Positions 59,040-64,000 of a stretch of 64,000 nt of DNA are shown in pieces. The DNA is from Kiritimatiellia bacterium (GTDB taxonomy: Bacteria; Verrucomicrobiota; Kiritimatiellia; JAAZAB01): positions 128,001 to 192,000 of the forward strand of contig JAXGPF010000006.1 in the NCBI GenBank assembly GCA_040767085.1, written 5' to 3'. How positions within the stretch are numbered: the stretch's first letter is position 1; each line of letters opens with the position of its first letter. A model generated the notes under the pieces. That model was given only the letters and a program-made list of their open reading frames with translations, did no database searches and was not told the origin of the DNA. The translations under genes and the position numbers were made by a program.

Positions 59040-59088
59040 AAGGCGGCAAGTCAATTAATCAAAAATGCGCCCCCGTGCATGAAAGACG

Positions 59089-59853
59089 GTTTGGGATTGC
59101 CCCCCGTCCAGGGGATCGTATAATCACTGGCCCAGGTCGGTGGCGGTGACGCCCGTTTGGGATTGCCCCCCGTCCAGGGGATCGTATAATGAAATCGAAT
59201 CCATGGCCGAAACACTCTCTGGTTTGGGATTGCCCCCCGTCCAGGGGATCGTATAATAAAATAATAGTTTACACCATATGCATTTTTGTTTGGGATTGCC
59301 CCCCGTCCAGGGGATCGTATAATACGCGGACCTGTTTCGACTATACCGGCCCCGTTTGGGATTGCCCCCCGTCCAGGGGATCGTATAATGCGGGTGGTTG
59401 CTATGTATTCGACGGGAACGGTTTGGGATTGCCCCCCGTCCAGGGGATCGTATAATGCCGGCGGCGCGGATGTCGGAGAAGTTGTAGTTTGGGATTGCCC
59501 CCCGTCCAGGGGATCGTATAATCGGCGGAGCATTTTCGCGTGCGGGATGCGAGTTTGGGATTGCCCCCCGTCCAGGGGATCGTATAATACAAACGGACGG
59601 CGGAATGCGCGTAGTGCTGTTTGGGATTGCCCCCCGTCCAGGGGATCGTATAATTGCGGCACTGCGCTCGATTGCTGCATGATGGGTTTGGGATTGCCCC
59701 CCGTCCAGGGGATCGTATAATTGGTTCTGGGATGGGACGCGGATGAACCGGGTTTGGGATTGCCCCCCGTCCAGGGGATCGTATAATACGGCCGAGGAAG
59801 TGGCGTCGCGCGAGGCGGTTTGGGATTGCCCCCCGTCCAGGGGATCGTATAAT
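59089..59853 (+). CRISPR. Type II-C CRISPR array: 12 identical 36-bp repeats, 11 spacers of 30-31 bp
   Basis: Repeat GTTTGGGATTGCCCCCCGTCCAGGGGATCGTATAAT; orientation inferred from tracrRNA pairing. Confidence 0.98.
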
Positions 59854-59856
59854 ATG

Positions 59857-59885
59857 TTGACATTTTTGTTTTAATATCATATAAA
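59857..59885 (+). promoter_or_regulatory. Putative tracrRNA promoter within the AT-rich leader
   Basis: TTGACA-N17-TATAAA. Confidence 0.65.
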
Positions 59886-59891
59886 TCAAAA

Positions 59892-60038
59892 GCAATGGAT
59901 GAATGTCGCTTTTGGACGGGGGGCATCATCTCAAATAAGCTGACCAACTTGTGGCACTGAGAACTCGTGGCAACACGGGAGCACCCACAGGTTGCAAGGT
60001 TTGGATGCGCTCCGAGCAATCGGAGCGCATCTTTTTTT
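59892..60038 (+). ncRNA. tracrRNA
   Basis: Anti-repeat TGGACGGGGGGCA (59913-59925, 13-bp perfect), TC bulge, ATCTCAAAT lower stem, AAGC nexus-like segment, terminator. Confidence 0.85.
60004..60038 (+). terminator. Rho-independent terminator
   Basis: 12-bp perfect stem GATGCGCTCCGA-gcaa-TCGGAGCGCATC followed by T7. Confidence 0.85.
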
Positions 60039-60387
60039 ACCAGATAAAGACCATTTGTTCCGGCATCTTTTCCGGCATAGCGGTTTTTTTGCAGCGAAAG
60101 ACCATCATTCTTCCCCACTGGGCATCCGAAATGATCAGCGCCCTCACTTCGCCTTCCGGCGGTATGTGTTTTTGCAGTCGGCGCACGGTGGTTTCGACCC
60201 GGTCCGCGCTGCCGCAGGGGCGGGCATAAACGCTGAACTGTAACATTATGTAGCCCTCTTTAATCAGGTCGCGCCGGAAATCGGCCGCCGCTTTTCGCTC
60301 TTGCCGCGTTCCGACGGGCAAATCAAAAAATACAACTGCCCATGCCATGCGATATTTACTACATCTGGTTGGCCGACTCCGTTTCAC
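60037..60387 (-). CDS. cas2: CRISPR-associated Cas2
   Basis: YRMAW..VFFDLP, FRRDLIKEGY.MLQFSVY. Confidence 0.95.
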   Translation of the reverse strand: MKRSRPTRCSKYRMAWAVVFFDLPVGTRQERKAAADFRRDLIKEGYIMLQFSVYARPCGSADRVETTVRRLQKHIPPEGEVRALIISDAQWGRMMVFRCKKTAMPEKMPEQMVFIW

Positions 60388-60392
60388 ATTGA

Positions 60393-61394
60393 TTACGTAC
60401 CGGAAGTTGGCTGTGGTATCATCGGGATTGATAGAGGGAAGCGAGCGTCGCGCAATGTAGCCTGCTGCAGCCCGCGCACCAGCAAATCAATGGCATGCAA
60501 CATTCGAACAGTCTGGCCCTTGATTTTGACTTCCAAGGCCAAAAGCTTGGCGGCTGCCGGTATCCAGGATTGCATGTCATAATGCAGGCCGCTGTATGCC
60601 AAATACTGGCGTAATTCCCGGTCTGCCCAAGGACGTAAGGGCTCCATGATATCGTCCGCCAGCGCAAATGAACCGGCACGGTTGCTGTGGTGCAGACCCA
60701 GCGCGGCAATAAAACCATGCACCGCCAGGCTCCGTAAAACCGCCGTCCGCAGCACCGCGTAGGCATAATCCAACATGCCGTTTATGCCTTGCCGGCTGCC
60801 GGGAACGCGTTTAGTTTCAGCCGAGGGCAATTGGCGGAAAAAACAATGCCAATATATGCGTGCAGCCCGTGATTCACAGGCATCTGGCGTTGCGACGTGC
60901 CTTCCGACTCGTTGTGATGGCGTAATTTTATCAATAGATACTCGCTGTTTCACGGAATCTGCTACCGGTGGGTTTTCACAGGTTTTGGCAATCAGCATTA
61001 ATTTGCCATGCGTCTCGCGGTCGTTTGCCAGTACCGCCGCCTGATTGTGTATCTTGGCCGCAATCAGTTGGCGCCACATACCGGTTTTCCATGTGTCAGT
61101 CCAAACAGTTTGGGCGCGGATGCATTCTGTATTGGTAGCCCGGTAATACGGCAAAGATATGGAGCATGGTTCGAAACGTTCGTTGCAAATTAACAGCGGG
61201 ATGTTCAATTCCGCCATTCGTCGCAACGCGCTGGCGGTAACCGATGTTTCCCGGGAGGCAACAATGACCGCGGCGACATCCGCCAACGGGATGGAGCGTA
61301 TTTCATCCTCGTCCGGCGCCTTTATCTGCAACTGGTCCAGTCGCAGTCTGACATGCAAATCAGGCTTTATCAGATGGATGATTCGGAAGCTCAT
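60393..61394 (-). CDS. cas1: CRISPR-associated Cas1, type II
   Basis: KIHNQ, ESRAARIYW, NGMLDYAYAVLR, GLHH, LADDIMEP. Confidence 0.95.
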   Translation of the reverse strand: MSFRIIHLIKPDLHVRLRLDQLQIKAPDEDEIRSIPLADVAAVIVASRETSVTASALRRMAELNIPLLICNERFEPCSISLPYYRATNTECIRAQTVWTDTWKTGMWRQLIAAKIHNQAAVLANDRETHGKLMLIAKTCENPPVADSVKQRVSIDKITPSQRVGRHVATPDACESRAARIYWHCFFRQLPSAETKRVPGSRQGINGMLDYAYAVLRTAVLRSLAVHGFIAALGLHHSNRAGSFALADDIMEPLRPWADRELRQYLAYSGLHYDMQSWIPAAAKLLALEVKIKGQTVRMLHAIDLLVRGLQQATLRDARFPLSIPMIPQPTSGT

Positions 61395-64000
61395 AACCGG
61401 CATGCTTGAAATACTGTTGCCAAGTTAGCTGCACTCCGTTCTCGGGGAATCCGGCCGCAACTAAACCATCCGCATCTCCGGAGAGGTGAACCGGTAGAAG
61501 CTGTATTTGGTTCTGCCTGGTGGATTTTATTATATATTTTCCAGCGGGTTTTCCAGTACCGGGCGAAGTGACCAAGTGCACAGTATCATTGACGCGCAAA
61601 ACATGATACGGGCGTTTATCCGGGGCAATGGGATGAATCATTATAGGCTGGTCTGATTTACCAAAGGGGATCAATACAGGCACAAGGCGTATGCTGTCAG
61701 CGGAAAGATGAATGCGGGCTTCACGATACCCGTCCCGTTTCACAAATGCTTTTATATCGGCATGAACGGGCATGACTGACCGATCATCTTTAACGGAAAC
61801 TAACTTGACGGTACGAATAGGGATAATTGGCCTTTCAGGCCATTTGAATTGTGGTGTAGTATTGGATTTTCTTGCTGCTTCGCGCCAGCGTTGGAAATGT
61901 GCAAAACATAGCTTTTCAATAAAATGGTCTGGTAGTTGTCCTTTATTTTTCTGCTTCTCATCCGCCGCGTTAGCGTCAGCGGTAAAATGCGACCAAGCTG
62001 TTATGAGGTATTCCCCGAGTTCCGGCGGATATACATCACGGAAATTCATGGGCTTTAATGTGTTCAGCTTTTCGCGGCACACATAGACGTTGGCGTCGCG
62101 CTTACCCAACAGGGTTGTGAAATAACCCGAACGATGGGGACGGCGTGAAGCATGATGTCGGATGTTAATTCGGGGTATTATCGCCTGGCAAATATCATGC
62201 ATCTGATTGGGACGGGGGAAGACCGGATTGGCGGCATGGCTTCGTCCGCGCTCATCCATGGTCCACCATCCGTGATTCTGGTTTTCGTCCATCGCCCCGA
62301 CGGTTCTGTGGGCCAGCCATGGCAACGTACAGGCTATGACCATGGCATCCAGCGCATGGTGACGCAAGTCTGCCCGGTTTTTGGTTTGGCACCTATTTTG
62401 TTCATCCGGAGTAAGGTCATCCCACCTTTGGCCTTCAGGAAGCGGATTCAATAGGTGATTTAACCCCCAAGCCTGCCGCAAACGACTGGTGATTTGGCCG
62501 TTGGTGACCTGGAAAGCGACGGAAGGCTTGTTTCCGGTTTCCATGGTTGGATCGCGACCTTCCTTGGAAATCCATCCCAGTTGAATCAATGTAATATGGC
62601 GTATGACACGCGCGATGTAGGCCGTGTGCTGCAAATCAGCTTTCTGCTCGATTAATTCCTCCGCATTCGGACTTAAAAACAGTTCGCGTTTTAGCCCTGT
62701 AAAGCGCGCGGCGGCATTTTTGGCAATGGCATTCCATTCTTCGGATTTTCCAAAGGCTTCAAAGGGCGTGCGATCCAATTGCAAGTTCCGGTTGCAATGG
62801 ATATGAGTGATGGTAAGGTTGTAGGACTCATTGCAATCTACGCGCGCGCGGGGGACAATATGAGCGATGTCAGCGGAATCGCCCAGCGCTGCACGGTTTA
62901 TCGTTTGCAGGCAAATCGGGCAAATCCCATGGGCTTCCTTCCATAAGCGATAGCGTAAAATTGCCTGGCGGGTGGGAAAAATTCCCTCGTCCGCCAGATC
63001 GTTGCGGGCTTGCTCGCGTTCGGCGCGATATTGTTCGTTTTGTTTGTTTAATTTTTGCTTGGCTTTCCGGCCCAAAGCCAGGCTGCGCACGGCCTCGACA
63101 ATTATGAAATCAGGCTTGCCGTGTTTTGAGACAAGCTGCAATAAAAGACGATTATACAAACCAAGACGATGCCGCACTAATGGATGGCGGATCTCTGCCA
63201 TATAACGATTCAAGGCGGCCTCGCGTGTCTCATGCGGCCGGCGCAACAGTGGTTGGGACGGAATAATTTGTCGTCCCGCATTGATTTCGCTTTTTATGAA
63301 ATCCAGGGTGGGCGATGCGAACCGCGCTCGGCCGGCTGTGGAATCTGGCGTTAATGGTTTCTGATCTTCTATCAATATAAATTTATCGCTGAAAGGGCGG
63401 GACAGCTTTTTCAGCCGACCCAGCGTTACCTTGCCATGGCGATCCCACTCCTGCTGCAAGGTTGCGACAAACTCAGGAAAATGGATGCGCGGATCAAGAT
63501 GCCGGCTGGTGGCCGGATCTAAAACGCGAAAATTCATTAACGCCAATACCCATTGGGCGCTCCGAAATTGTGCCTTGTTCTTGCGCGCAACATGTAACGG
63601 CCGGCCCTGTTCATCATAAGGTTTATAGGCGTCCAATGCCGGCCCGCGATTGTCAAAACGCGGCCAGCGCAATCCCAAAATCCCGGGATTGCGCGATTCA
63701 CCAGCGCGAAAATAAACATGATACTCCTTTCCGTTCCTCGATTTAACCTGGGTATCGCCGTATAAAAGCCAATTGGCTTTCCCCGATAATTGCGGATAAC
63801 ATTTTTTTTGCGCTTCAACAATCGCGCGAAATTCTTCCTCAAGTTTTTCCCTCGGCCAGTAAATCTGGCGGCCCCATTTTCCGGCGGGATGGCGTCCGAC
63901 CTCCTGTCTTCGCATGGAAAGCAATTGACAGGGGTAAAGGCATCCCCTGGTTGCCATTTCTTGCACAATCGCGAGAACTTTTGCTTTGACATCGCCCTCT
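61360..64000 (-). CDS. cas9: Cas9 (type II-C), N-terminus outside the window
   Basis: Frame open to the edge; PRFDNR, HPLVR, RuvC-II IIVEAVR, HNH CPIC...HIVP...N...CN, RuvC-III RHHALDAMVIAC; no csn2 or cas4 next to cas2. Confidence 0.95.
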   Translation of the reverse strand, partial: EGDVKAKVLAIVQEMATRGCLYPCQLLSMRRQEVGRHPAGKWGRQIYWPREKLEEEFRAIVEAQKKCYPQLSGKANWLLYGDTQVKSRNGKEYHVYFRAGESRNPGILGLRWPRFDNRGPALDAYKPYDEQGRPLHVARKNKAQFRSAQWVLALMNFRVLDPATSRHLDPRIHFPEFVATLQQEWDRHGKVTLGRLKKLSRPFSDKFILIEDQKPLTPDSTAGRARFASPTLDFIKSEINAGRQIIPSQPLLRRPHETREAALNRYMAEIRHPLVRHRLGLYNRLLLQLVSKHGKPDFIIVEAVRSLALGRKAKQKLNKQNEQYRAEREQARNDLADEGIFPTRQAILRYRLWKEAHGICPICLQTINRAALGDSADIAHIVPRARVDCNESYNLTITHIHCNRNLQLDRTPFEAFGKSEEWNAIAKNAAARFTGLKRELFLSPNAEELIEQKADLQHTAYIARVIRHITLIQLGWISKEGRDPTMETGNKPSVAFQVTNGQITSRLRQAWGLNHLLNPLPEGQRWDDLTPDEQNRCQTKNRADLRHHALDAMVIACTLPWLAHRTVGAMDENQNHGWWTMDERGRSHAANPVFPRPNQMHDICQAIIPRINIRHHASRRPHRSGYFTTLLGKRDANVYVCREKLNTLKPMNFRDVYPPELGEYLITAWSHFTADANAADEKQKNKGQLPDHFIEKLCFAHFQRWREAARKSNTTPQFKWPERPIIPIRTVKLVSVKDDRSVMPVHADIKAFVKRDGYREARIHLSADSIRLVPVLIPFGKSDQPIMIHPIAPDKRPYHVLRVNDTVHLVTSPGTGKPAGKYIIKSTRQNQIQLLPVHLSGDADGLVAAGFPENGVQLTWQQYFKHAGYELPNHPSDKA

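Follow-up and report, generated by a model that had tools for sequence, protein, structure and literature searches.

Joint replacement of two HNH active-site residues in a type II-C Cas9 of a Kiritimatiellia bacterium and in other Cas9 lineages

The stretch of DNA analysed here, called the window throughout, comprises 64,000 nucleotides of a Kiritimatiellia bacterium (assembly GCA_040767085.1, contig JAXGPF010000006.1, positions 128,001 to 192,000) and carries near its right end a CRISPR locus with a type II-C cas9 gene. In the HNH nuclease domain of the encoded protein, P0002, two residues are replaced together: the acidic residue that stands before the catalytic histidine is an alanine (Ala521), and the lysine of the HNH helix is a glutamine (Gln549). 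The pair is inherited, changes jointly among relatives and recurs in other lineages of Cas9. Comparison of the sequences identifies this as selected remodelling of the active site and not as decay, and the probability that the HNH domain of P0002 is remodelled but still catalytic is put at about 0.5. A Cas9 with the altered pair may thus have an uncommon mode of cleaving DNA, or may do no more than nick it.

Two residues of the HNH site and their joint change

The cas9 gene, read from the minus strand with its stop at 61360, crosses the right end of the window, and its first 142 codons, including that of the RuvC-I residue D19, lie outside. The whole gene was taken from the window's own assembly (L001:1498-4563, minus strand) and encodes 1021 amino acids from a GTG start. 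Pfam recognises P0002 by RuvC_III (E 1.4e-14) and, in a narrow pass, by HNH_4 (23.0 bits, the cut-off being 22), and the closest solved chains are those of Nme-type Cas9 (E 2e-20, residues 402-657). The HNH sequence, CPICLQTINRAALGDSADIAHIVPRARVDCNESYNLTITHIHCNRNLQLDRTPFEAF, reads ADIAH at the catalytic site, which confirms the observation of an earlier, sequence-only reading of the window. A HMMER alignment to the HNH chain of NmeCas9 matches Ala521 with the Asp in VEIDH and Gln549 with the Lys in ENQNK, so that the alanine does stand where the acidic metal ligand is expected; the equivalent residue numbers in SpCas9 and NmeCas9 are given in Table 1. The lysine is likewise missing as had been claimed, with Gln549 at its site, but it had been expected three residues after the Asn and the spacing in this clade is four. 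Of the residues that characterise a type II-C Cas9, the HNH histidine, the structural Asn and the metal Asn are present in P0002 as H522, N536 and N545, and the RuvC-I, -II and -III residues D19, E444, H689/H690 and D693 are all present and conserved; the acidic residue just before the catalytic histidine and the conserved Lys of the HNH helix are the two that are lacking. An AlphaFold model of the HNH stretch, made from a five-sequence alignment, was set aside as too poor, with a pLDDT (predicted local distance difference test) of 61.5 overall and below 50 in the active-site part.

The alanine codon, GCT at 62865..62863, is real as far as assembled data can tell. Logan contigs from four runs in four studies cover it (Table 1) and show no differences, base 62864 included, for which a check in reads had been proposed; being contigs and not raw reads, they leave rare variants invisible. 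Two of the contig sets, X5 and X6, carry no flag as possible sources of the assembly. The same Ala is found in three other distinct proteins and in one metagenome locus, and a sequencing or assembly error at base 62864, refuted as far as contigs permit, retains hardly any probability.

Close relatives of P0002 were collected in two ways. When 5.8 billion proteins were searched, 265 relatives came up at E ≤1e-10, 120 of which, with 49-62% identity, were used, and a second search with words from the HNH stretch added 15 more, so that 135 sequences were aligned together. At position 521, 130 of them have Glu, four have Ala and one has Gly; at position 549, 131 have Lys and four have Gln. The proteins with Ala521 are exactly those with Gln549, namely P0002, P0004, P0005 and P0091, which represent distinct clusters of 54-62% overall identity. 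The earlier proposal to look for the Ala in orthologs is answered on both sides: it does recur, in three other proteins and as an inherited pair (E521A + K549Q) instead of a private lesion, and it is otherwise the exception in a clade with Glu. Positions 521 and 549 are the only strongly group-specific columns of the whole protein in the 135-sequence alignment, with weak ones at 746 and 1021. A search of genome contigs with P0091 found five relatives, and the HNH site, read in four of these, was DIEH in all. The ancestral residue at 521 is by this comparison Glu and not Asp, the codon being GAG or GAA in the relatives with DNA examined, and the remark that GCT lies one base from the Asp codon GAT does not hold as a history of the change.

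The motif CxxC...HxxC of the HNH domain, which had been suggested as a zinc site, supplies the four ligand residues of a zinc-finger HNH (CxxC ... [C/H]xxC) at two knuckles, and its conservation fits such a putative site. C502 is present in 135 of 135 sequences and C505, H541 and C544 each in 133. The two exceptions, P0077 and P0085, have lost the last three jointly (C505T, H541E/D, C544F), which fits one functional unit, and yet retain the Glu-His and the Lys. The clade to which these two belong (P0101, P0109, P0110, P0077, P0085, P0111 and others) is in itself a mosaic, in which HNH identity disagrees with backbone identity: P0101 and P0110 share 88% of the HNH domain and 66% overall, P0101 and P0109 53% and 73%. 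Its C-terminal part, which interacts with the protospacer adjacent motif (PAM), comes in two types whose distribution cuts across the tree, and recombination seems to swap domains among these Cas9 proteins.

The same paired change was found beyond the close relatives. From a HMMER search of 1.84 billion cluster representatives the best 150 were taken, and 126 besides the query had an HNH match. Ala or Ser stands before the histidine in eight of these 126 best-listed representatives, each time together with Met or Gln in place of the Lys, whereas Lys is present in every one of the remaining 118. The pattern [AS]H ... CNRx[DE]M is shared by seven of the eight. Six representatives of this [AS]H/[DE]M type form one clade, with a support of 99 in the Shimodaira-Hasegawa-like approximate likelihood ratio test (SH-aLRT) in a tree built without the HNH columns, and their end branches measure 0.47-1.24 changes per column. 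The eighth representative, P0247, is a remote Cas9 whose site has four Cys, and it likewise combines Ala with Gln. Among 80 metagenome loci examined, with the HNH readable in 77, Ala or Ser precedes the histidine in 11, of which ten have Met and one Gln, and all 65 loci with Glu or Asp have Lys. Half-changed forms, that is Ala or Ser with Lys, or Glu or Asp with Gln or Met, were found in none of the three sets of 135, 126 and 77. The codons differ as well: Ala is GCT in the window and GCG, GCC and GCA in other lineages, and Ser is TCA or TCG.

As judged from these comparisons, the neutral pairing arose more than once, in the A+Q group of P0002, in a deep sister clade with Ala or Ser plus Met, and in the distant P0247. 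Within the A+Q group the number of origins is less clear. FastTree placed P0002 and P0102 together while warning of long branches, and since mixture-model trees also pair the two, the A+Q state may have had one origin or more on the protein backbone; in the HNH-only tree the group needs two changes, with one remaining possible. One metagenome locus, L046 (2355 bases), holds a Cas9 fragment whose HNH domain is mostly like those with Glu-His but reads ADIAH ... CNRDLMKNRTPY, and the pairing of Ala with Met may have arisen there independently.

The rest of the active site has been kept where the pair has changed. Every Cas9 with Ala or Ser at the site retains the catalytic His, the metal Asn, the Arg that follows it and the zinc ligands. 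Relatives of the same superclade whose HNH domain looks truly dead lose the His: P0141 reads ADIEF, with Asn changed to Ser and Arg to Val, P0094 reads AEIGR, and the fragment P0157 reads EP. For the six pairs that can be formed within the A+Q group, HNH identity falls at fractions 0.31-0.88 of the spread seen for ordinary pairs of equal overall identity, so the sequences give no sign of relaxed constraint on the domain. The loci are whole as well. In the metagenome set, cas1 follows cas9 in 11 of 11 loci with Ala or Ser and cas2 is seen in seven, the contigs of the other four ending less than 1 kb from cas9; arrays of 14, 15 and 17 repeats follow in the three that continue beyond cas2, and the one with 14 is the complete locus L070, which has the A+Q state. 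For comparison, loci with Glu or Asp and at least 2.5 kb downstream of cas9 have cas1 in 14 of 14, cas2 in 14 of 14 and arrays in 11 of 14. The pattern in these sequences argues for an active site that is still selected and not a dead one, because the two residues change jointly, more than once and with no intermediates, the other catalytic residues are retained across deep divergence and the loci are whole.

The CRISPR locus and the targets of its spacers

The positions of the locus and of the HNH residues are collected in Table 1. The cas1 and cas2 genes come directly after cas9, and with neither csn2 nor cas4 at the locus it is classed as type II-C. All three cas genes are open reading frames at full length. 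A promoter-like TTGCCC-16-TATAAT occurs on the plus strand in 12 of 12 repeats, compared with a mean of 1.2 after shuffling, and the repeat and anti-repeat form a duplex of 26 bp at -44.1 kcal/mol, against -26.9 for the opposite strand. From the duplex energy, the terminator and the promoter-like sites, the CRISPR RNA (crRNA) and the trans-activating CRISPR RNA (tracrRNA) are both predicted to be read from the plus strand; in the type II-C systems of Neisseria the two are likewise read from the same strand. The locus is a complete type II-C CRISPR-Cas9 set with a predicted tracrRNA, and the earlier impression that RuvC, cas1, cas2, the array and the tracrRNA candidate are intact was borne out. 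The array is not assembled in the Logan contigs, and the order of its spacers rests on one assembly. Loose ends at 59589 and 59619 were considered as alternative forms of the array and rejected, since they are the lpd protospacer locus described below, and a 355-amino-acid open reading frame at 59051-60118 (minus strand) that spans the array and has no Pfam match was dismissed as an artefact of the repeats.

Table 1. Positions in the window of the Cas9 HNH residues, the CRISPR locus, two of its spacers and the contigs covering the Ala521 codon
Feature	Position	Strand	Remarks
cas9, type II-C	61360..64000	-	3' 2.6 kb of 3066-nt gene
HNH beta-beta-alpha-metal core	62701..62943	-	residues 495-575
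Ala521, codon GCT	62863..62865	-	position of SpCas9 D839 / NmeCas9 D587; clade norm Glu
His522, codon CAT	62860..62862	-	catalytic general base, kept; H in 134/135
Gln549, codon CAA	62779..62781	-	position of SpCas9 K866 / NmeCas9 K614; clade norm Lys
Asn545 (metal ligand) and Arg546	62788..62793	-	both kept; N in 135/135, R in 132/135
Putative zinc ligands	62794..62922	-	C502 62922-62920, C505 62913-62911, H541 62805-62803, C544 62796-62794
cas1	60393..61403	-	Pfam Cas_Cas1, E 1.9e-30
cas2	60037..60387	-	Pfam CRISPR_Cas2, E 5.8e-15
tracrRNA candidate	59905..60040	+	anti-repeat about 59908-59937, stem-loops, intrinsic terminator 60003-60032 with T run
CRISPR array	59089..59853	+	12 identical 36-nt repeats, 11 spacers of 30-31 nt; crRNA sense +
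Self-targeting spacer	59589..59618	+	30/30 match to host lpd at G000:C3:32248-32277
Kin-matching spacer	59655..59685	+	27-28/31 to a DegT-type aminotransferase gene in four related genomes (L017, L018, L019, L025)
Logan contigs over the Ala521 codon	X1 62221-63554; X3 62395-63514; X5 62338-62963; X6 62606-63208		

No ortholog of this Cas9 was found in four genomes of the same genus (G001-G004), and the best match among 60 related genomes, 28 of them other members of the family, had 32% identity over part of the protein. The locus looks sporadically distributed or acquired. In one genome of the same family, the last 150 bases of the locus L016 (contig G030:C229) hold an array with the near-identical repeat GTTTGGGATTGCCCCCCGTCCAAGGGATGGTAAATT running off the contig end; no cas9 match was found in this 84%-complete assembly.

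The eighth of the eleven spacers matches the host itself. Its target sits on a 225-kb contig inside an intact dihydrolipoamide dehydrogenase gene, lpd, in an aceE-aceF-lpd row, and at least three spacers lie on either side of it, so that at least three are younger whichever end of the array acquires. The lpd crRNA has the sense of the coding strand and would pair with the template strand. None of the other spacers matched the host genome above noise at up to eight mismatches. A second spacer matches a conserved DegT-type sugar aminotransferase gene in the chromosomes of related genomes (Table 1), of which the host has only paralogs of at most 40% identity and no close copy, which suggests that the array samples DNA of kin; spacer uptake from the DNA of kin has reportedly been seen in Neisseria.

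In all, credible targets were found for two of the eleven spacers when the array was compared with 301 genomes of the class and 33 of the order. An exact search for the spacer at 59258-59287 gave no matches in viral contigs and none in metagenome contigs, and blastn of the whole array against phages and plasmids returned only pieces at chance level (E 0.06-0.8). The two protospacers have 3' flanks, GGACGGCGAA and CGCTGGGSAT, that share G at +2, +5 and +6, and 5' flanks that share AAT at -6 to -4. Because two protospacers do not resolve the PAM, the lpd self-match is not decisive as to how this Cas9 cuts: the absence of a PAM, the action of an inhibitor and weak cutting would each be enough to account for its tolerance.

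Possible workings of the altered site and their meaning

In its general build P0002 is of the NmeCas9 kind (9ar4, 6kc8, 6jdq). It shares with that kind the domain order with RuvC, HNH and RuvC_III matches, the arrangement cas9-cas1-cas2 without csn2 or cas4, repeats of 36 nt that start with GTT, end in a -10-like box and each carry a promoter-like site, and the placing of the crRNA and the tracrRNA candidate on one strand. The similarity is a distant one, confined to the 402-657 stretch mentioned above, and the HNH domains differ in two respects: NmeCas9 lacks the Cys-Cys-His-Cys set of P0002 at the aligned positions, and the Asp that precedes its catalytic His and the Lys that follows its metal Asn are Ala and Gln in P0002. 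For the HNH stretch by itself the best sequence match in the PDB is to a group II intron maturase, in its presumably zinc-braced HNH endonuclease domain (6me0, E 7e-4), which has the same CPxC ... HxxC(H/N) spacing, that is the CxxC...HxxC pattern, but has His-His where P0002 has Ala-His and belongs to a different protein context.

In P0002 and its three relatives, Glu521 and its partner on the helix, Lys549, which would be in contact in the ancestral form, have been exchanged jointly for neutral residues (E521A + K549Q). If the remodelled HNH is catalytic, the remaining set would still cleave the target strand. His522 would act as general base, Arg546 would serve the transition-state charge, Asn536 would be structural, and Asn545 would be the one residue of the protein that binds the catalytic metal directly. 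The rate or the affinity for metal may well be lower, and a slower enzyme is possible. The Serratia nuclease and I-PpoI work with a His/Asn/Arg set and no acid before the His, and bind their metal through a single Asn and waters; they are of unrelated families with other supporting residues and are a precedent of mechanism only.

Several points weigh against persisting cleavage. In SpCas9 the exchange D839A alone substantially compromised gene editing, which agrees with the harm of losing D839 that the sequence-only reading had named, and the Lys equivalent to K866 is called invariant in II-A and II-C Cas9, both as stated in sections of one study (PMC6706240). Loss of both the acid and the Lys could abolish cutting of the target strand. 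No new acidic residue is found nearby in the A+Q group, whereas the sister clade has an invariant Asp or Glu one position before the Met. The retention of His and Asn is supported by few independent lineages, and the HNH domain serves, apart from catalysis, as the switch licensing RuvC, a function that could preserve the domain but would not necessarily preserve the residues of catalysis. The presence of the lpd self-match in the array would be easier to explain with double-strand cutting that is weak or absent.

These points lead to the main alternative, a natural nickase or very slow cutter, which was the suggestion of the sequence-only reading and to which we give a clearly smaller share of belief than to continued catalysis. 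The HNH domain would here be kept as a conformational switch only, the non-target strand would be nicked or the DNA merely bound, defence would come from processing of the nicks by the host, and self-targets would be tolerated. The array does contain a perfect spacer against an intact housekeeping gene, and since its crRNA pairs with the template strand of lpd, binding alone would be harmless; template-strand pairing is the orientation that least blocks transcription for catalytically dead Cas9 (dCas9). RuvC is intact, and both residues that mutational and structural work places at the HNH metal site (PMC6706240) are gone. Prime editors with D839A are described in PMC10063541 as retaining non-target-strand nicking.

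P0002 shares an Ala at the D839 position and an intact RuvC with the engineered SpCas9 nickases D839A, H840A and N863A. In P0002, by contrast, the change arose in nature, is inherited and goes together with loss of the Lys, the His and Asn are kept, and the likeness is one of sequence alone. The nickase result in vitro is that of N863A, D839A having been scored by editing in cells, as far as described in PMC6706240 and PMC10063541. IsrB is presented in a review as a natural RNA-guided nickase (PMC10734277) and would be a functional analogue if the HNH of P0002 were dead, but IsrB has no HNH domain, whereas P0002 keeps the domain and most of the catalytic residues.

Against a nickase stand the catalytic His, Asn and Arg, retained in every lineage with Ala or Ser over deep divergence and lost in the relatives that truly look dead. 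The perfect covariation of Glu and Lys to Ala and Gln or to Ala/Ser and Met, without intermediates, implies that the balance of charge at the active site is still under selection; beside these Cas9 proteins adaptation genes and long arrays are retained, and the lpd self-target may simply be without a PAM. Type II immunity in the systems studied also requires both nuclease sites. The nickase reading is thus possible and not the most likely one, as the active site looks still selected. Its wider form, in which several natural Cas9 lineages (A+Q, A/S+Met and at least one distant) are RuvC-only nickases or conditional cutters, the lpd guide is harmless to this organism and its type II system works by nicks or binding, is less likely than not.

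A different proposal concerns what drove the change and is compatible with an HNH domain that is remodelled and catalytic. Anti-CRISPR proteins of the AcrIIC1 type grip the catalytic residues of HNH, as set out in parts of PMC5859409, and escape from such docking could have selected the new pair. Positions 521 and 549 being the only strongly group-specific columns and the repeated origin of the change would both suit this, but the driver is purely inferred and we consider it improbable. Less probable still is a decaying or silenced system, in which the HNH change would be one step in the loss of function and the self-spacer would be tolerated by an inactive locus. Self-targeting spacers do often go with degraded systems, P0002 sits on a long branch (end branch 0.52-1.17) and the four same-genus genomes searched lack an ortholog, but the three full-length cas genes, the 12 identical repeats each with its promoter-like site, the good pairing of the tracrRNA candidate with the repeat, the A+Q state of the complete locus L070 and the lack of excess HNH divergence all speak against it.

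For Cas9 itself, neither a natural nickase nor naturally altered HNH catalytic residues were found in the literature, supplements not being covered by the search; the natural nickase that it did name is IsrB. A large ortholog catalogue retained only Cas9 with canonical catalytic residues (PMC7606464), and forms like P0002 may therefore have been passed over. If the HNH of P0002 still cuts, Cas9 would be able to do without the pair of acid and Lys that is regarded as fixed in it, and His, Asn and Arg could suffice by themselves, which bears both on the mechanism and on how sequence is used to judge which orthologs are active. If it does not cut, P0002 and its like would be the first Cas9 nickases from nature as far as the literature searched shows, and the question would be how a nick gives immunity, or what other role such a Cas9 has. 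In either case the strict covariation of two residues amounts to a clear-cut experiment of nature on the HNH site, and it may mark escape from anti-CRISPR proteins.

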